A stretch of DNA of 64,000 nucleotides, from NCBI GenBank assembly GCA_965204665.1, contig OZ242002.1:1285865-1349864 (forward strand), in the 5' to 3' direction. The notes under the pieces are model-generated. The model was given only the letters and a program-made list of their open reading frames with translations, was not told the origin of the DNA and ran no database searches. Below, piece after piece: positions 2,755-64,000 of the stretch; the stretch's first letter is position 1, and every line of letters begins with the position of its first letter. A program made the translations under genes and the position numbers. This DNA comes from Thermodesulfobacteriota bacterium. Lineage in GTDB: Bacteria; Desulfobacterota_D; UBA1144; Nemesobacterales; Nemesobacteraceae.

Positions 2755-5658
2755 TCAGGAAAGATCTCTTCTTATGGCCAAGTTCTTCCTCGACATCATT
2801 CCGTTTTTGTCCTTGGCCACTATCGTGAAAAGATTCATTTCCTCTTCAAGCGAAAGCGGAAAAGAGATGAAGACGTTGGTTTTTCGGGGAGTAAGAAGTC
2901 TTATCTTATCGTCTTTTCTCCAGACAGAAATACTTTCTATACGGTCCGAGTCCATGACCGACCCTTCTATCACCACCAGGGATTCATTGGTATGTAGAGG
3001 AAATTCAGATAATTGTATGGAGGGCGGGTTTTCAAATGCTTCTGCGAGAGCCGTTATCTGTGTTTCCCGCGTTTCATCAGGAAGTACTCCACGGGTTTCG
3101 ATCTCAGCCGTTTTTTCATCTATCCAGCCCGAGATGCCGTTTTTCCCCTCAACCCGCACCCAGTTTCCTGATTTTCCCAGAACCCTGAGCCTGGAATCTG
3201 CCTGCGCGACGGCTATCGTCCCCGCTTCGACGAAGGCGCCGCCGAAGACGGGAACGGAATCAGGAAGCACAGCGCTTCTTTCCGGATCAAAAGAGACGAA
3301 TTCGATTTTGTCCGTGTACGCGGGCAGAGTTATTCTGTGCGTTCTTATTTCACGCAGGTCCTCGTCCATTACCGAAAACTCAAACTCCGTCTCACCGCCT
3401 TGCCCGTTTTGCCTGAAGCGAAACGGAGCTGCGCGAATTTCTCCGGGACGAAAATTTTCGAACTCAAACCTTCCTTTTTCCAGAAACACATCTTCGCCTG
3501 AGAGATTCTTGAGAGATACGACGGTTTTTCCGGACACTCCTTCGCCTGTGTTTTTTAACTTCAAGTTCAGTACAACGGTTTCCCCTATTTCAGTCCGACC
3601 GTTCGAGTTGCCCTCGCTTCCGAATCTTCCGTCGTCTACCGTTTCATAGTGATGGGAGTATCCGGGGTATTCGGCCGCTGCGGTTGTTATCAGAAGAGTT
3701 TTTTCCGTAAACGATTCCTTTTCCGAACCCGACAGAATGAACTTGAGTTTATCTTCGCGGGTCGTCATCCATGCAGGTACGAATACGCTCACTTTGGAAA
3801 TTGCGCTCTGTCCCGGAAACAGTTTTCCGAAAAGAAACTCCTTATCGGCGTAGATACTGTTTTCGCAGTCCGTGACCGCACTTAACCTGTATATGGAGTT
3901 TTCGCCGATGTTGGTCACCTTCACCTCAAGAACATTCTCTTCTCCTGCCTGCAGTGCCGTCTCGGAAGGAATTAAAGTTATCTCCACTTGAGGGTCTTCC
4001 GTCCTTCCACCGGACCAATCAGTGTCTGTTTTCTGAATCTGTTCTTGTATTTCTTCGAGTTGGGTTTCCGCCATATCCTCCGCCACGCCGCGCATCTGTT
4101 CCCGCGTTTCAGTTAGAAGCAGGTTTTTTGAAAATTTCACATAGAAATCATTCTTGATTTTCTCGAGTTTTTCTTCTTTTGTCAGAGATTGATCTGATAT
4201 GATCTCCTCTTGATCTTCAGTCTGCGGCAGCAGGGATTCATCAATATATTTGATAGTAAAAGCGGGGTCTTCAAGTTCTCCTACAGCCTCTCTTTTCTCA
4301 GGCAAGGGGTTATATACGACCTTTTCTTCAGTTACGATGGACCCCTGCAGAAGTATGTCGGGAGTTACTCCGACATCCTGTATCGAAACATCTCCGGGAA
4401 GATAGTACTTGGCTACCGTAAGTTTCAGCGCTGAACCGTCTTCCATCTCAAAGATCTTTTGAACGGACCCTTTTCCATACGATCTGTTTCCCAAGACCCA
4501 CGCCCTTCCGTTGTTCTTGAGGGCACCTGCGGTTATTTCCGATGCGCTTGCGCTTCCTTGGTCAACCAGCACGACAAGATTGCCGTCGTACAGAGTGTTT
4601 TCCGTCGCTTTATAGGGAATTGAATCTTTTTTAGACCTTGTCGACACTATAATTCCGGAGGAAAGAAAGAAATCAGCTACATCTTTTGCCTGGTTGAGAA
4701 GTCCTCCGGGGTTTCCTCTCAGGTCAAGGATTATCCCTCTGATCTCATAAGGACGTTTTGTTATTTCATTTTTGAAATGGGATGCGGTGTTTTTCTGGAA
4801 GTTCTTTATCTTTAGATAGACGATATTGTTTTCAAGATCGTGGGATTCAACGCTTTCTATCTCTATGATATCTCTTATTATCGAGAATTTCAGGGGTTTA
4901 CTGGCCGTCTTCCTGGAAACCAGTATATTTACTCGGGTTCCTTTTTCTCCTCTGAGTTTTCCGACTGCCTCAAGAAGCGGCATGTTTACGGTGGACTCGT
5001 TTTCTATCTGCACGATTCGGTCTTTTGTTTTCAACCCGGATCTGTAAGCGGGAGTTCCTTCTATCGGGGATATTACAGTCAACTGCCCGTCTCTTATTCC
5101 CACGACTATTCCGAGTCCTCCGAAACTTCCGCGGGTATCTACAAGAAATTCCTTGTATATATCCGGTGGAATTATCGCGGAGTGAGGGTCCAGCACCTTG
5201 AGCATGCTGTCCGACATCAGATACTCTATGTCTTCCTTCGCATCTTCTTCAGCTTGGGTATTGGAAAGAACAAACGACATGACCTGGTCTATCATGCCCG
5301 CGACATCCCTCACGGAAGAAAGCCTCGCCATCTTAAAGATTTCGGTTTCGGAGTTTACTTGAACTGTAAAAGTATCTTCCCGGTTTTCCGGAAATTCCAC
5401 CATCACGTCATCCAGTTTTATTTCCAGGCTCGAGACGGCTGTCTCAAGTATTTTTCGATAATCAATCTTGCTTTCATCAACATAAAAGTTGTTTGCTCGA
5501 TTGAGAATATTTTCGGTTAACCGGGCGCTTCGGCTGTCGTGGCGGCTGTCAAAACTTATCTGGTCCGCTATTAGAAAAAAGGACGGGATGCCGACTATCC
5601 CAATCAAAAAGGGGATTATGTATCCGTTTCTTAGGAAATTTGAAAATTTTCGAGACAA
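2755..5658 (-). CDS. large S41-family C-terminal processing peptidase with a PDZ domain and a ~500-aa C-terminal beta-rich extension
   Basis: PDZ segment (GIVVGIRDGQLTVISPIEGTPAYRSG) and S41 core (LDLRGNPGG ... VVLVDQGSASASEITAGAL ... GKGSVQ). The reading frame starts with TTG at 5658. Confidence 0.8.
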   Translation of the reverse strand: MSRKFSNFLRNGYIIPFLIGIVGIPSFFLIADQISFDSRHDSRSARLTENILNRANNFYVDESKIDYRKILETAVSSLEIKLDDVMVEFPENREDTFTVQVNSETEIFKMARLSSVRDVAGMIDQVMSFVLSNTQAEEDAKEDIEYLMSDSMLKVLDPHSAIIPPDIYKEFLVDTRGSFGGLGIVVGIRDGQLTVISPIEGTPAYRSGLKTKDRIVQIENESTVNMPLLEAVGKLRGEKGTRVNILVSRKTASKPLKFSIIRDIIEIESVESHDLENNIVYLKIKNFQKNTASHFKNEITKRPYEIRGIILDLRGNPGGLLNQAKDVADFFLSSGIIVSTRSKKDSIPYKATENTLYDGNLVVLVDQGSASASEITAGALKNNGRAWVLGNRSYGKGSVQKIFEMEDGSALKLTVAKYYLPGDVSIQDVGVTPDILLQGSIVTEEKVVYNPLPEKREAVGELEDPAFTIKYIDESLLPQTEDQEEIISDQSLTKEEKLEKIKNDFYVKFSKNLLLTETREQMRGVAEDMAETQLEEIQEQIQKTDTDWSGGRTEDPQVEITLIPSETALQAGEENVLEVKVTNIGENSIYRLSAVTDCENSIYADKEFLFGKLFPGQSAISKVSVFVPAWMTTREDKLKFILSGSEKESFTEKTLLITTAAAEYPGYSHHYETVDDGRFGSEGNSNGRTEIGETVVLNLKLKNTGEGVSGKTVVSLKNLSGEDVFLEKGRFEFENFRPGEIRAAPFRFRQNGQGGETEFEFSVMDEDLREIRTHRITLPAYTDKIEFVSFDPERSAVLPDSVPVFGGAFVEAGTIAVAQADSRLRVLGKSGNWVRVEGKNGISGWIDEKTAEIETRGVLPDETRETQITALAEAFENPPSIQLSEFPLHTNESLVVIEGSVMDSDRIESISVWRKDDKIRLLTPRKTNVFISFPLSLEEEMNLFTIVAKDKNGMMSRKNLAIRRDLS

Positions 5659-5768: not shown

Positions 5769-5778
5769 GGGGGGGGGG
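5769..5778. repeat. G10 homopolymer tract (C10 on the minus strand)
   Basis: Counted directly: ctgg+gggggggg. Lies between the AmiS-like gene terminator and the S41 peptidase promoter. Confidence 0.9.
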
Positions 5779-5785
5779 AGAATAG

Positions 5786-5822
5786 AAAAAAACAACAATG
5801 ACAGGATGAGAAACATCCTGTC
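5786..5822 (-). terminator. rho-independent terminator downstream of the AmiS/UreI-like gene
   Basis: Minus strand has GACAGGATG-ttctc-CATCCTGTC followed by attgttgTTTTTTT. Confidence 0.6.
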
Positions 5823-5851
5823 ATTGTCGCTGAATCTTTTAGACTAACACC

Positions 5852-26125: not shown

Positions 26126-27658
26126 TCAGTCTACAAACTCATACTTGTTCTGACTGATGATGTTTCCCGCCTTGTCGTTGTCCGCCGTGCTGCCTATCTG
26201 AACAACTTCAGTTCCTCCCACGGAAATCTTGCCGGCAGCGTTGGTCAACGCTCCGGCCCCAGCCGCGAAGCCCCTGAACTGAATCCTGTCGTCCGCCAAT
26301 GTGAAGTCCGTAATGATGTCCACACCGCCGTCGGCTTTTCTGATGAGGAAAGTGTCGTTTCCGGCTCCGCCGGTAAGGTTGTCGGCGCCTTCTTCACCTA
26401 TGAGAACATCATTCCCTGCTCCTCCGTCAAGAGTGTCGGTACCTTTACCGCCTCTGAGGGTGTCGTTCCCTCCTCTGCCTTCAAGAGTGTCGTCGGCGTT
26501 TCCTCCTCTGAGAGTATTCGCCTTGCCGTCCCCTTTAAAAGTAACGGCGGTAGTACGAGGACCGAACCTTGACACAGCAGTAAGGTTCTCGAAGTTGGAA
26601 GCAAAACTGGGAGGATTCGCAAGATCGAAGGTACTAAGCGCGTTACTGCCCCATGAAGCGGCAGTACTCCCACCAGCAATGAGATATGTACCTCCATACA
26701 CTACAAGGGTATCATTTCCCGGCCCGCCATCTGTTGTACCTGCTCCGGCGTTCCCGGTGGGTGGAGAGGGGTCGATTGTGTCATCTCCGGCTCCACCCTT
26801 TATAGTGTCGATACCGAACCATCCATCTATAATATTGTCTTTATCGTCTCCGATAATAGTGTCGTTACCGATACCGCCGACAACATCCTCAATACCCGTA
26901 ATTTTATCACTCCCATATGTAGCATGCGTCGAAGAGCCTAGGCTGAGGTCTACAGTATGACCCGCTGTAATGAAACTTGTGGGTGGGCGACTGGTGGTCC
27001 CGGGTGCAAGAGGAGGAGCAAAAACCAGCCTGTCATGGTCTCCGGCACCACCGATAAACGTATCGTCACCCGGGTCGGTAATGAGAAATTCATCATTACC
27101 GGGTCCGCCGTAGATCGTATCATTACCGGGTCCGCCGTAGAAAAACCCCCTCCCCTTTCCACCGTAGAGAGTGTCATTTCCGTCTCCACCCCGGAAATGG
27201 TCGTTCCCGTCTTCGCCGTAGAGAGTGTCATCGCCGTTCTCACCGTAGAGCAGATCATTACCTCCTCCGCCGTAAACAGTATCATCACCATCACCGGCTT
27301 TAATGTCGTTGATGTATTGATTTCCGCAGATGACATCGTCATCCGCAGTTCCCGTGACATCATCGGAGACACCGGGAAGCGCATTTATACCGTTGCTGAC
27401 GTCGCATCTGGGATCACCGAAGGACTTTCCCGGATCTCCCTGCAGACCCGTCGCTCCCGGTGCTCCCGAGTCTCCTTTATCTCCCTTATCCCCCTTATCT
27501 CCTTTCGCCCCGTCTTTCCCTGCCGGTCCCGCAGGCCCCATGTCTCCTTCACAGGCGGCAAAGAAAACCGCTCCGCCGAGCAGAAACAACAAAACTAAGA
27601 AATTACGTAATTTCATAATACAACCTCCTTTGATAAGATGTTTTTTATTAATAAGCAA
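26126..27658 (-). CDS. lipoprotein with collagen-like Gly-X-Y repeats and RTX (hemolysin-type calcium-binding) nonapeptide repeats, paralogue 1
   Basis: Signal peptide plus lipobox (LFAAC). GPAGPAGKDGAKGDKGDKGDKGD collagen-like region. Many GGxGNDxxY repeats. Confidence 0.8.
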   Translation of the reverse strand: MLINKKHLIKGGCIMKLRNFLVLLFLLGGAVFFAACEGDMGPAGPAGKDGAKGDKGDKGDKGDSGAPGATGLQGDPGKSFGDPRCDVSNGINALPGVSDDVTGTADDDVICGNQYINDIKAGDGDDTVYGGGGNDLLYGENGDDTLYGEDGNDHFRGGDGNDTLYGGKGRGFFYGGPGNDTIYGGPGNDEFLITDPGDDTFIGGAGDHDRLVFAPPLAPGTTSRPPTSFITAGHTVDLSLGSSTHATYGSDKITGIEDVVGGIGNDTIIGDDKDNIIDGWFGIDTIKGGAGDDTIDPSPPTGNAGAGTTDGGPGNDTLVVYGGTYLIAGGSTAASWGSNALSTFDLANPPSFASNFENLTAVSRFGPRTTAVTFKGDGKANTLRGGNADDTLEGRGGNDTLRGGKGTDTLDGGAGNDVLIGEEGADNLTGGAGNDTFLIRKADGGVDIITDFTLADDRIQFRGFAAGAGALTNAAGKISVGGTEVVQIGSTADNDKAGNIISQNKYEFVD

Positions 27659-27692
27659 AGTCTTGTCATAAGACTTTTATTTTATGGATTTG

Positions 27693-27720
27693 ATTCTACC
27701 CCCCCCCTAACTAAGTCAAG
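27693..27720 (-). promoter_or_regulatory. sigma70-like promoter with a G9 tract in the spacer (TTGACT-tagtta-G9-TAGAAT); candidate phase-variable switch
   Basis: Read directly on the minus strand. Spacer is 15 nt, so G11 would give the optimal 17 nt. ATG lies 35 nt downstream with an AGGAGG RBS. Confidence 0.55.
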
Positions 27721-42494: not shown

Positions 42495-43823
42495 TCATTC
42501 ACCGCGTTCCATTCGAGTACTCCAGCTGTCTCTCATACCCCTGTGGTCTGCCCGACTGTTCCTGCTCTGATACGACTGATTCACCATCTCCTTGTGCATC
42601 CGCGGTGAAAACCTGCGGTCGACACGGCGCGCGAGCATCTCGAGTTCACGCACCATATCATTCCCCCGGTCAAGACCCCTCGCGTAACGACGGAAATAAT
42701 GCAGCTCCCGCTGAACATATTCCTTCGCCTCGGAATATGCTCCGTCCCGATTCATCCGAGACGCAGTGAGAACGACATCCGCGCTCCACATCCTCGCCAC
42801 TACTTCGGCAGTCTTCATGTCGCGCGGCTGATAGTTGTTGACCCTGCTGTCGGCGGCAACCAGACCGACCGTCTTCGGACCGGCCTCAAGAATGCGTCGA
42901 TCCCCGACGGAACTCGCTCTTGTCGACAGTTCAAACTCCAACACGTCTTTGGCCTTTCCGCCCGGACAGGTTACTTTGAAGACGGCGACCCGCTCTATGC
43001 CGTTCTGAATCGGCCCGAGCCGGACGAGAACGGAGTCGTCGCGAAGAACGGAGTTCTCTCTGCCCAGCGCATCGACCCGTACACCCGCAGGAAATGTCAG
43101 AGTCACCTCCGCATCCTCGACCACCGTGTTGTAGATGTCTCCGAGTTCACCCAGAAGAACGGTTGAAATTTCACCGGCGTGCTCCACATCGTGCAGACGC
43201 CCTCCTCCGTTCTCGGCCATGCCCCTCAACAGATGCTCGTCGTATCCGGCACCTATACCGAGAGCGGAAGTGAATACTCCCCGCTTTCTGAATTCACCGG
43301 CATGCTCTCTGAGTTCCGCAGGGTCCGTTATACCTGCATTGGCGTGGCCGTCGCTCAGTATGATCACGCGCGGCGTCATGCGGGCATCCTCTTCCGCCAC
43401 CCGAGCCGTGCACTCGACCCCGGCAAACCACCCCTCGGACAGTGCGGTCGAACCTCGGGTTCGCAGCCGTAAAATCTCTTCGCGTATCCGGTCCGCATTT
43501 TCCCCGCTCGCCTGCACCGCGTCGAGATGTATCCGAACATCGGATGCGAAAGAGACCAGGGTGATCCGGTCCCTGTCCGTCAGATGCCCGGTCAGACCGA
43601 CCGCCGCTTCCTTGGCCGCTTCAAGCTTTCCACCGCCCATCGACCCGCTCGCATCCATCACAAGAGCTATGTTGACGGGCATCTCCTCTCCGGAAACGCC
43701 GTCTTCCCCGCTCCGCGCCTCGAGTCTCGCAACGAGATAACGCACGGAATCTCCACCCTGCCAGTAGAATTGCCGGTCGAAGCCGGCTTCCGCAGTAAAA
43801 TTCACATCAGTCATTCTTTCCAC
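42495..43823 (-). CDS. von Willebrand factor type A (vWA) domain protein
   Basis: MIDAS motif VMDASGSMGG...LSDGHANAG, plus a ~250-aa C-terminal region. Confidence 0.8.
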   Translation of the reverse strand: MERMTDVNFTAEAGFDRQFYWQGGDSVRYLVARLEARSGEDGVSGEEMPVNIALVMDASGSMGGGKLEAAKEAAVGLTGHLTDRDRITLVSFASDVRIHLDAVQASGENADRIREEILRLRTRGSTALSEGWFAGVECTARVAEEDARMTPRVIILSDGHANAGITDPAELREHAGEFRKRGVFTSALGIGAGYDEHLLRGMAENGGGRLHDVEHAGEISTVLLGELGDIYNTVVEDAEVTLTFPAGVRVDALGRENSVLRDDSVLVRLGPIQNGIERVAVFKVTCPGGKAKDVLEFELSTRASSVGDRRILEAGPKTVGLVAADSRVNNYQPRDMKTAEVVARMWSADVVLTASRMNRDGAYSEAKEYVQRELHYFRRYARGLDRGNDMVRELEMLARRVDRRFSPRMHKEMVNQSYQSRNSRADHRGMRDSWSTRMERGE

Positions 43824-44499
43824 CTCCTGTTAGAATGGCGCGGAACTGGTCCGCAAGTTGTTCAAAAAGAATCCGCTCCCGAGGCTCGAGTTCCCCTCGA
43901 ACAGAGATCTCGAAGGCGGATGTTACGGATATTCTCGTCCAGACTTCACCCCGCGAGTGCCGGGGCGCAGAGTCTCCCAGTATCTTCTCCAACTGAAAAA
44001 TCAACCATTCAATGCTCGTCAATTCGTTCCCGCCCGGTTCGGACCGCCCGGTTCTGCGGAACTTTATCGACCTCCGGTTCAGACCCCGTTCCGAAAACGG
44101 TGCTTCCGATACATCTCCGTACGGCTCCCGCCGGGTGGTGGAATCCGTTGCGGACCGGGTCGACCCGGTAGAAGTGCCTCCCGCCCGAATCCTGCTCAGA
44201 TAATCGCGGGCAGACCCGGGCGGCGCTGAAGTCAGACCGATTCCGGTCGCCCACTCCCTGATCTGTTCTTCGGTCGCCCTGATGAACAACTGCCCGATTT
44301 CGGACAACGACAACCCCCGATGTTTTTTGAGCGCCCTGACCGCCGCCGCGCGGTCCGCGTTGCTGCTCGGATAGCGCGCTCCCCGGCCGGGCCTGAAGGG
44401 CGGAGCCAGCAGTCCCTCGCTGATCCACGAACGCAGAGTACGGACCTCGACGCCGGTACGTCTGCTGAGCTCTTCGATTGTGAGTCGATCATCATTCAT
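43807..44499 (-). CDS. MerR-family transcriptional regulator with a low-complexity C-terminal half
   Basis: N-terminal HTH LTIEELSRRTGVEVRTLRSWISEGLL; overlaps the vWA gene start by 17 nt. Confidence 0.7.
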   Translation of the reverse strand: MNDDRLTIEELSRRTGVEVRTLRSWISEGLLAPPFRPGRGARYPSSNADRAAAVRALKKHRGLSLSEIGQLFIRATEEQIREWATGIGLTSAPPGSARDYLSRIRAGGTSTGSTRSATDSTTRREPYGDVSEAPFSERGLNRRSIKFRRTGRSEPGGNELTSIEWLIFQLEKILGDSAPRHSRGEVWTRISVTSAFEISVRGELEPRERILFEQLADQFRAILTGGGKND

Positions 44500-44968: not shown

Positions 44969-46491
44969 GAGTTATTGTCAAATCTGGTGTTTGCGTGATC
45001 AAGCGGCGCTCCAGTTATTTGAATTCTCCTCTTCGTTTTCCTGATTTATATCCTCAATTCCATCTTTGGATTTCACACCTGTTATCACTTTTCCTACGAA
45101 GTCGAATCCGTTGAGCCTTCGCCAGTTGTTCTCCGCACACATCCCCAACTTGAAGATCATGTGCAGCATTCCCTCGGAATTCAGACACCCTTCAGCTCTC
45201 CTGGTTCTGTGCCGTATGGTTCCGAAGGAGGACTCTATCGGATTCGTCGTCCTTATGCTTCTCCAGTGCCGAGCTGGAAAATCGTAAAAGGCCGGAAGTT
45301 GCTCACGGTCCCTCTCCAAACATCCGGCAGCCTTCGGATATTTGTCCCCGTACATCCTTATGAACAGATCAAAAGCCTTCCGCGCTTCCTCCTTCGTCTC
45401 AGCCTGCCGGATGTCATGCAGGCACCTCTTCGCTTTTCTCCGGGAAGTCTTCGGAAGACAGTTCAGCACATTCGCCGTCTTATGTACCCGGCAACGCTGC
45501 TCCCGCGTCTCCCCGTAAACTTCAGGAAGCGCAGACCAAAACCCTGGAGCTCCGTCACCGATTGCAAGCTTCGGCTCTTCCATCCCGCGAGCCTTCAGGT
45601 CCGACAACACTTCGCGCCGACTCTGCTTTGATTCCCCGACTCCGTTTTCAATGGAAAGGAAGTGCTTCTTCCCGCTCTGATCCACCCCTATCACCACCAG
45701 CGTGCACAACCCGGGATCATCTCCCCGCACCTTGCTGTGTATACCGTCCACCCGGATGTAAGCCCGGTCGTGGCCGCTGAGGTCTCTCCTGCGCCGTTTA
45801 TCGTATTCCTCAGCCCACTTGCGCTTGAGCCTGGATACCGTAGCCGCGGAAAAACCCCGAGCCTCGGGGCCTATAAGGGCTTCCAATGCGGACTTTATGT
45901 TCCCCGTGGACAATCCCTGCAGGTAAAGCCAAGACAGAGACGATTCAAGTTTCGCAGCCTTGCGTACGTACGGAGGCACAATAGCCGAACGGAACACGGC
46001 AGGCTGACCGTCTCTTGATCTCACTTCGGGTATGCGTACCGATACAGGACCTATACCCGTCTGCACATCCCGTTCCGGGTGGTATCCGTTACGAATCACC
46101 GCGGCCCTGCCGTCTTCGAGTTGTCTGTCGTTCCGGGACTGCAGGTATGCTTCCGACTCCATTTCGATTGCGGAAACCAAGAGAAGCCGAGCTGACTTCC
46201 TCAACAGATCACTGAGGTCATCGCAACACTGTTCAGGACTGCCGAATCCGGAGTCCGGTCGTCTCTGAGTGCGGGACCCGTCAATTACTGTTTGAGAGTT
46301 CTTCCCGAAGAACTTTGTAAAAATGTTTTCCAATGAATCAAAAAGCTCTTTTTGACCTTCACGGTCAAAAACTTTATATTTTCTGCCCATAGCGGCGTAT
46401 CCTCCTGTAATTGGAATTTTGGTGAATTCAAATTAACCGGATACGCCGCTTTTTTTCAAAACCTGCTGAACACCAGATTAGAGCATAACTC
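44969..46491 (-). mobile_element. intact IS256-family insertion sequence (~1.52 kb) with imperfect terminal IRs and a 9-bp target-site duplication
   Basis: IRs GAGTTATTGTCAAATCTGGTGTT and GAGTTATGCTCTAATCTGGTGTT. Direct repeat AGCGTTCGG sits immediately outside both ends (about 44960-44968 and 46492-46500). Confidence 0.75.
44999..46390 (-). CDS. IS256-family (Mutator-type) transposase
   Basis: 463 aa; DDE region with CRVHKTANVLNCLPK and NPIESSFGTIRHRTRRAEG motifs. Confidence 0.85.
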   Translation of the reverse strand: MGRKYKVFDREGQKELFDSLENIFTKFFGKNSQTVIDGSRTQRRPDSGFGSPEQCCDDLSDLLRKSARLLLVSAIEMESEAYLQSRNDRQLEDGRAAVIRNGYHPERDVQTGIGPVSVRIPEVRSRDGQPAVFRSAIVPPYVRKAAKLESSLSWLYLQGLSTGNIKSALEALIGPEARGFSAATVSRLKRKWAEEYDKRRRRDLSGHDRAYIRVDGIHSKVRGDDPGLCTLVVIGVDQSGKKHFLSIENGVGESKQSRREVLSDLKARGMEEPKLAIGDGAPGFWSALPEVYGETREQRCRVHKTANVLNCLPKTSRRKAKRCLHDIRQAETKEEARKAFDLFIRMYGDKYPKAAGCLERDREQLPAFYDFPARHWRSIRTTNPIESSFGTIRHRTRRAEGCLNSEGMLHMIFKLGMCAENNWRRLNGFDFVGKVITGVKSKDGIEDINQENEEENSNNWSAA

Positions 46492-48047: not shown

Positions 48048-48074
48048 ATTCTACCCCCCCCCTTACTAAGTCAA
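48048..48074 (-). promoter_or_regulatory. promoter with a G9 spacer tract (TTGACT-tagtaa-G9-TAGAAT), second copy
   Basis: Same architecture and 15-nt spacer as the promoter at 27693-27720. Confidence 0.55.
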
Positions 48075-63756: not shown

Positions 63757-63929
63757 CCGTTCGGCTTCGGTCGCGAGGTCGGGTTTAGTTTTTCTAGAAA
63801 ATTCTTGACAAATGGAAACTTACTGTGATAAGGTTATATGCGATGGAGCCGGAGGGTTTCTATTATCAGTGCGGATTAGCAATTTTACATCATACTGACG
63901 AAATTATTTTACAGAGGAGGTTGTATTAT

Positions 63930-64000
63930 GAAATTACGTAATTTTTTAGTGTTGTTGTTTTTACTTAGCGGAGCGGTTCTCTTCGCGGCTTGTGAGGGGG
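63930..64000 (+). CDS. 5' end of a third RTX/collagen-like lipoprotein paralogue (runs off the window)
   Basis: MKLRNFLVLLFLLSGAVLFAACEG is nearly identical to the N-termini at 27658 and 48005. RBS GGAGG. No G tract in its promoter region. Confidence 0.7.

Follow-up and report, generated by a model that had tools for sequence, protein, structure and literature searches.

Poly-guanine spacers in the promoters of a lipoprotein family of uncultured Thermodesulfobacteriota as candidate contingency tracts

Two lipoprotein genes in the 64-kb window analysed here (the whole stretch of DNA, at its full length) are each preceded by a promoter in which nine guanines make up most of the stretch that separates the -35 hexamer from the -10 hexamer, and about 55 promoters retain this design in two species, that of the window (species A, also represented by a genome of 1,980,752 bp) and that of the sister genome OZ220467.1 (species B). 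We consider it probable, at roughly 60%, that these G9 runs are contingency tracts in sigma-70-type promoters of a large surface-lipoprotein family, switching its genes by slippage within the spacer. Slipped-strand mispairing at replication would add or remove one G, altering the length of the spacer and hence the use of the promoter by RNA polymerase carrying RpoD. In the majority state the promoter would be off or very weak, at a spacer of 15 nt in species A and 19 nt in species B, and one or two slips (+1 or +2 in species A, -1 or -2 in species B) would bring it into the 16-18 nt window and turn the gene on. With a private tract for each paralogue, a population would show many combinations of lipoproteins. 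The architecture of the promoters, the purity of the tracts, and the differences in length between species, paralogues and strains are what a slippage switch would predict. The initial annotation had read the two promoters of the window as phase-variable; the architecture behind that reading, a homopolymer in the spacer, stands and recurs in 7/7 species-A promoters and in 48 of the 49 species-B paralogues, while the switching itself is something that we infer.

On the minus strand, lipoprotein gene 1 has the promoter sequence cTTGACT-tagtta-GGGGGGGGG-TAGAAT and gene 2 has cTTGACT-tagtaa-GGGGGGGGG-TAGAAT (Table 1), in agreement with the TTGACT-N6-G9-TAGAAT arrangement originally described for these two minus-strand genes. 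At both sites, then, recognisable -35 and -10 hexamers enclose a homopolymer that reaches the length of about 8 nt or more, and at both the spacer is 6 + 9 = 15 nt, which the gain of two G would extend to 17 nt, as had been proposed. The 27-nt promoter pattern, allowing up to three mismatches, has two matches in the window and none in 100 shuffles, and G/C runs of at least 8 occur at three places in the 64 kb, two of which are the lipoprotein promoters. A consensus scan on the gene strand upstream of both G9 genes found no alternative sigma-70-like pair with a 16-18 nt spacer. The primary sigma factor RpoD, which reads TTGACA/TATAAT promoters, is itself encoded within the window, where the neighbours are ordinary chromosomal genes (IlvD, CoaBC, MetRS, RseP, GlyS, DnaG and RpoD).

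Some details of the initial annotation required correction. Its start codon for gene 1, an ATG at 27658, is a TTG that serves as a mechanical open reading frame start and lacks a Shine-Dalgarno sequence, and the true ATG lies further downstream (Table 1); the AGGAGG-preceded start given for gene 2 was right. The distance from -10 to ATG, put at 35 nt, is in fact 76 nt for gene 1 and 42 nt for gene 2. The 5' untranslated region of gene 1 also contains a perfect 8-bp hairpin, which sits in a 34-nt stretch absent from gene 2 and encloses the TTG at 27658.

Table 1. Features of the window, with their positions and distinguishing marks
Feature	Position	Strand	Details
Promoter of lipoprotein gene 1	27719..27693	minus	-35 TTGACT 27719-27714; prefix tagtta; G9 27707-27699; -10 TAGAAT 27698-27693
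Promoter of lipoprotein gene 2	48074..48048	minus	-35 TTGACT 48074-48069; prefix tagtaa; G9 48062-48054; -10 TAGAAT 48053-48048
Lipoprotein gene 1, 496 aa	26126..27616	minus	ATG 27616; Shine-Dalgarno AGGAGG 27629-27624; lipobox, collagen-like Gly-X-Y, RTX repeats
Lipoprotein gene 2, 432 aa	46707..48005	minus	ATG 48005; AGGAGG 48018-48013; architecture as gene 1
Hairpin in 5' UTR of gene 1	27657-27677	minus	AAAGTCTT-atgac-AAGACTTT
Third paralogue	63806..64000	plus	TTGACA 63806-63811; no G tract; ATG 63928; leaves the window after 24 codons
Orphan G10	5769-5778	plus	followed by AGAAT; resembles G9-TAGAAT with a T-to-G change
Terminator hairpin of convergent AmiS/UreI gene	about 5800-5828		
MerR-family regulator	43807-44499	minus	beside the Mutator-family transposase
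Mutator-family transposase	44999-46390	minus	directly downstream of lipoprotein gene 2
Change of sign in GC skew	about 53,500-54,500		genes mostly minus to the left, plus to the right

The two products, described as RTX/collagen lipoproteins, both show in translation a lipobox, a collagen-like Gly-X-Y stretch and RTX repeats. From its ATG at 27616, gene 1 encodes the signal peptide MKLRNFLVLLFL..., identical to that of gene 2, and by pattern inspection the lipobox signal reads ..AVFFAAC in both (MKLRNFLVLLFLLGGAVFFAAC); Cys22 is invariant in 51 family sequences. Each window lipoprotein has some 13-14 Gly-X-Y triplets, and the Pfam collagen model (PF01391) scores 28.2 bits for gene 1, against a cut-off of 27.2, and 26.9 bits, just under it, for gene 2. 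Matches to the HemolysinCabind model (PF00353) are strong (4e-40 and 9e-35). An AlphaFold model of the gene 2 product, built with the 51 family sequences, has a pLDDT of 85.8 and two RTX beta-roll blocks, its closest PDB matches being the CyaA blocks of RTX repeats from Bordetella; in the monomer, the collagen-like part is not modelled. By Pfam match, and for gene 2 also by predicted structure, both window lipoproteins qualify as RTX proteins, a class whose tandem GGxGxDxUx nonapeptides form a parallel beta-roll, with putative calcium-binding beta-rolls, and the family proteins would be surface lipoproteins in which a collagen-like stalk carries RTX beta-rolls, with surface exposure putative. 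The best database relative of lipoprotein 1 is 65% identical, and lipoprotein 2 is 100% identical to protein P0019 of the 1,980,752-bp genome, which makes this genome, or a closely related strain, the source of the window. Exact-match look-ups with both window lipoproteins, MetRS and P0019 returned no entries.

These two genes belong to a large family. Protein searches found at least 30 paralogues on the 1,980,752-bp contig, at least 25 on the contig of 2,386,527 bp, and a few on smaller contigs from the same ENA samples, and by these searches the family is known only from a few new metagenome-assembled genomes. The larger contig is OZ220467.1, a closed chromosome (2.39 Mb) deposited as "MAG: Thermodesulfobacteriota bacterium", in which a pattern scan of species-representative genomes located 49 dispersed paralogous loci; the same scan found one locus in OZ241855.1, a third Thermodesulfobacteriota genome, and this homologue has no tract of any kind, so that the poly-G device is not universal in the clade. 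A scan of JGI metagenomes returned no true family members, and literature searches on the accessions or on the lipoprotein family found no description of it. With about 50 paralogues in 2.4 Mb, the family takes up some 2.5% of the genome and has so far gone unannotated. In species B the 5' cassette, comprising the -35 box, the untranslated region and about 75 nt encoding the signal peptide, is approximately 90% identical among paralogues, as against 50-70% for the gene bodies; in species A the promoter island, the Shine-Dalgarno sequence and the signal peptide are conserved and the untranslated regions vary. A conserved 5' cassette joined to divergent mature regions is the pattern by which a variable surface-lipoprotein multigene family is recognised, and to judge from the sequences this family may be counted as one.

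In species A, seven independent promoters were compared, from the window and from four low-coverage contigs of sample ERZ26693861 whose proteins match those of the 1.98-Mb genome exactly or nearly so. The pattern TTGAC[T/A]-N6-G9-TA[G/A]AAT holds in every one of the seven. In their alignment, conservation is limited to an island of 28 nt (TTGAC, the G9 tract and TA.AAT); neither the flank upstream of it, nor the six spacer bases other than G, nor the 5' untranslated region is alignable. Conservation restricted to this island implies that it is under selection as a promoter, and the retention of the G's while the other spacer bases diverged implies that they are constrained as a homopolymer and are not mere nine-base filler. 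The tract is G9 in 7/7, with no variation in length seen among them.

In species B, 48 of the 49 paralogues have a run of G10 to G17 lying 57-102 nt (mostly 90-100 nt) upstream of the ATG, almost always in the layout cTTGACT-(3-9 nt)-Gn-TAAACT/TAAAAT/TAGAAT. Over about 335 kb of this species there are 56 distinct G runs of at least 8, nearly all at family promoters: 43 are in intact promoters, seven in family promoters without TTGACT upstream (abutted by an insertion sequence (IS) or at a tandem-duplication junction), two have TTGAC and a -10 that is not TAnnnT (one cut by an IS, one an interrupted tract), and four lie elsewhere. The interrupted tract, at locus L027, is the only one in about 50. 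At L003 (1023-2400) two paralogues stand in tandem, and the G13 and -10 of the second begin 31 nt past the stop codon of the first with no -35 box, which places a duplication junction at the G tract. An intergenic C/G run of 15 nt at L013 (1998-2012) precedes a family promoter by about 430 nt; its sequence context is different, and no gene can be recognised next to it. At L081 a gene for a C5 DNA methyltransferase (PF00145; 3667-4602) contains an in-frame G12 (encoding GGGG; 4451-4462, minus strand) that comes after the N-terminal region and ahead of the GFPCQ catalytic motif, and has Vsr, an IS1595 transposase and MutS as neighbours. Its sequence makes this enzyme a candidate phase-variable methylase and suggests a wider use of poly-G contingency tracts in the lineage.

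Sigma-70 promoters normally use spacers of 16-18 nt, and the modal spacers of the two species, 15 and 19 nt, both lie one step outside this range. Among the 43 intact species-B promoters the total spacer is 17 nt in one, 18 nt in six, 19 nt in 25, 20 nt in eight, 21 nt in two and 22 nt in one; the promoters at 17-18 nt, about 7/43, may be on. The typical G run is 9 in species A and about 13 in species B, where it varies among paralogues, yet the standard deviation of the total spacer in species B (0.89) is smaller than that of the G run (1.18), which indicates that the distance between -35 and -10 is what matters. In keeping with this, prefix and G-run length are anticorrelated (r = -0.67, permutation p<5e-5), so that TTA+G16, TTGT+G15, TATGT+G14, TTGTAA+G13 and TATGTGA+G12 all amount to 19 nt. 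Part of the anticorrelation comes from A-to-G substitutions at the border of the tract, which lengthen the run and leave the distance unchanged. Slippage at G12-G14 should be orders of magnitude faster than base substitution, and fast slippage combined with such tight modes implies that each species maintains its own distance, which is 19 nt for species B and 15 nt for species A. A loose census of TTGAC-Nx-TAnnnT motifs, made for the organism's normal spacer optimum, was too noisy and yielded no usable optimum.

Direct comparison of strains was possible in sample ERZ24894574, which contains the closed species-B chromosome together with linear contigs from strain variants that co-occur with it. 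Over 5.9 kb, contig ctg6754l (L081) matches L012 at 99.66% identity, and here the tract is G12 in L081 and G13 in L012 (spacer 18 versus 19 nt) with 360/360 other bases identical, although a one-base error in a long-read consensus could produce the same difference. This is what a slipped-strand mutation would leave, and it is the single clean case. Contig ctg6363l (L063) is 99.5% identical to L004 and L025 over 5 kb; one orthologous pair has TATGTGA-G12 against TATGT-G14, the total spacer staying at 19 nt through A-to-G substitution, and the other has G12 against G13 together with the insertion of an IS, which confounds the comparison. L004 (2400-2425) and L063 (9900-9925) differ at 8/20 positions immediately downstream of the -10, a cluster that suggests a gene-conversion patch from the 5' untranslated region of another paralogue. 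The comparison of tract lengths across related genomes, envisaged in the initial annotation as a check on phase variation, has thus given uniform G9 in species A and G12 versus G13 in one species-B strain pair, and leaves switching neither refuted nor proven.

The most serious competitor of slippage switching, which we nevertheless regard as unlikely, is that the G run is a fixed structural or protein-binding element, whether as G·C DNA that is rigid and A-like or as a regulator's binding site, with a geometry of 15 or 19 nt specific to each species and conventional control of expression. The persistence of G9 in 7/7 species-A tracts despite diverged flanks, the sharp species-B mode at 19 nt and the orthologous pair that keeps its 19 nt through substitution would all be expected of such an element. 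For a sequence-specific site, however, lengths from G10 to G17 would not be expected inside a single genome, nor 9 G in one species and 13 in the other; tracts of this length are intrinsically unstable in every bacterium tested (PMC3401435), and one strain pair differs by exactly one G. Nor was a candidate regulator found, the MerR-family gene of the window being unlinked to other loci and MerR operators being dyads rather than homopolymers. A MerR-type mechanism acting on a 19-nt spacer was considered separately and rejected, since there is no dyad operator, the species-A spacer is 15 nt, and that gene is unlinked to other loci. We also rejected a G-quadruplex in the window, as G9 should be too short to form one intramolecularly.

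Still less probable, in our judgement, is that the tracts are neutral passengers, an ancestral G run having been copied by duplication or conversion and its length having settled at mutational equilibrium with no role in expression. The roughly 90% identity among the species-B 5' cassettes and a patch of clustered substitutions, which suggests conversion, lend this some weight, as does the attribution of the modal G9 of Campylobacter jejuni to mutational patterns rather than to selection (PMC3401435). In that organism the slippage rates of G8-G11 tracts are about 1e-4 to 4e-3 per division, with a bias to insertion at G8-G9 and to deletion at G11 (PMC3401435). By analogy, such biases would return excursions to the resting lengths, and a length-dependent bias of this type also offers a possible non-selective explanation for the uniform G9 of species A. 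Against neutrality, conversion tracts would be longer than the 28-nt island of species A, whose conservation implies selection, and species B holds the total spacer and not the length of the G run. Substitutions would also be expected to interrupt a neutral tract, which is the case only at L027, and it is established promoter biology that a change of spacer within a strong -35/-10 pair must affect transcription. That the runs are artefacts of sequencing or assembly we consider very improbable indeed. Homopolymer length is the weakest point of a long-read consensus and some of the comparison contigs are at 2-3x coverage, but the tracts lie within long contigs at homologous positions before about 55 genes, recurring in five or more assemblies or contigs drawn from two samples, and always between the same -35 and -10 boxes; an error could shift a length by one base and could not create this pattern. 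Slippage switching has points against it as well, among them the uniform G9 of species A and the orthologous pair that kept its 19-nt spacer and differs by a substitution instead. MutS is present in the lineage, so that slippage gains nothing from a loss of mismatch repair. With modal spacers outside the active window, almost every member of the family would be off in the consensus genome, and this requires the tracts to be "parked" at an inactive length.

An insertion sequence of 2,441 bp has entered several promoter G tracts of species B. A copy assembled from L016 (4390-4452) and L047 (1-2400) lies at about 2,095,246-2,097,686 of OZ220467.1, and further sites are at L007, L021, L038:261, L050 and L063:1-1457. 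The transposase that it encodes, of 594 aa, is of the DDE_Tnp_1 / DDE_Tnp_1_assoc type, and the terminal repeats of the element are imperfect (CAGGGCTTTCTAATTTT.. / CAGGACCATTCAGTTTT..). It occupies at least six family promoters, in both orientations, and the one copy with both flanks visible reads TTGACT-tatgtga-G11-[IS]-G11-TAGTCT, the G run being duplicated on either side and the -35 severed from the -10. One of the insertions distinguishes two strains of 99.45% identity, only one of which has it. These sites suggest that poly-G is the target of the element. Other transposase genes or fragments, of the IS21, IS1595 and DDE_Tnp_1 types, occur near the family loci L001, L063 and L081, which fits a genome rich in mobile elements.

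The third paralogue was described as having an ordinary TTGACA promoter without a tract and a start at 63930. It lies on the plus strand with its ATG at 63928, and the TTGACA and the lack of a G tract are as stated; a promoter scan of the plus strand before it, however, found no consensus -10 at 16-18 nt, the best candidate being TGtGATAAG, 16 nt from the TTGACA, so that the word "ordinary" fits this promoter only loosely. Without a tract, this paralogue may be constitutive. An orphan G10, overlooked by the initial annotation, has no TTGACT or other -35 upstream and no gene downstream, and runs directly into the terminator hairpin of a convergent AmiS/UreI gene. A family promoter or gene has probably been lost here, with the tract as its remnant. 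Near 54 kb the GC skew and the prevailing gene orientation switch in the pattern of a replication origin; no cluster of DnaA boxes was found at this switch and no dnaA gene in the window. An Rfam search of the window gave no matches. In species B, a perfect palindrome, CCATTTATAAATGG, lies in nearly all 5' untranslated regions, about 60-75 nt past the -10 (for example at L012 2420-2440), and from its sequence could be a protein-binding site. A riboregulator was rejected, the 95-nt 5' untranslated region of species B being without conserved RNA structure (consensus -1.1 kcal/mol, no covariation).

Taken further, slippage switching leads to a bolder proposal that we advance tentatively, judging it somewhat less likely than not to hold in full. 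The lineage may run the largest known switchboard of promoter homopolymers, with about 35-50 dispersed genes parked by selection just one slip from the active window, at 15 nt in one species and 19 nt in the other; the default cell would be nearly "naked", rare cells would display random sets of lipoproteins, and the homing of the IS to G tracts would add a second, irreversible form of silencing. Phase variation through promoter homopolymers is textbook knowledge in a few pathogens (Neisseria, Treponema, Mycoplasma and Bordetella). If slippage switching is correct, combinatorial surface variation extends well beyond the medically studied bacteria, to a lineage with genomes of 2-2.4 Mb in which dozens of paralogous surface-protein genes carry the device, and it points to strong fluctuating selection on the surface by phage, grazers or a host. 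With 15 nt in one sister species and 19 nt in the other, nature provides a test of the way in which contingency tracts come to be parked with respect to the active window, and the tracts mark spots where the consensus of a metagenome-assembled genome hides heterogeneity in the population.

In porA and in tp0126 of Treponema pallidum, a poly-G tract lies between -35 and -10 with an optimal spacer of 17 nt (PMC7864442; PMC3899988), and in tp0126 G9 is the commonest length, with 7-11 found within isolates (PMC7864442). The promoters described here share with porA of Neisseria meningitidis the base, the position and the logic, the number of G setting the -35/-10 distance. Unlike porA, which is a single porin gene, they serve a whole family of paralogues, and at essentially all loci the consensus is 2 nt short of the optimum, or 2 nt long in the sister species. 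With tp0126 and the tpr genes they have in common several outer-membrane protein genes with poly-G promoters in a small genome; most tpr tracts, however, overlap or follow the -10, whereas here the tract fills the spacer, and the families of T. pallidum are unrelated and much smaller. C. jejuni likewise has tens of G/C tracts per genome with a modal G9 (PMC3401435), but these are mostly coding, lie in unrelated genes and act by frameshift, in contrast to tracts in the promoters of a single family. In the vlp genes of Mycoplasma hyorhinis each promoter has a poly-A tract, and indels switch each gene independently (PMC10502178). Here too, there is a conserved 5' region and signal peptide, a divergent mature part and one promoter homopolymer per gene; the differences are that the tract is poly-G rather than poly-A, that about 35-50 genes are dispersed where vlp has a handful in one cluster, that the host is a Gram-negative-type Thermodesulfobacteriota known as a metagenome-assembled genome and not a mollicute, that the collagen-like/RTX proteins are unrelated to Vlp, and that switching is here deduced from sequence. 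By these analogies the mechanism would be closest to that of porA and tp0126 and the organisation closest to that of M. hyorhinis vlp. What is unusual is the combination of about 50 independently equipped paralogues, an uncultured thermodesulfobacterial lineage, a collagen/RTX cargo, and putative resting lengths of 15 and 19 nt that mirror each other about the active window.
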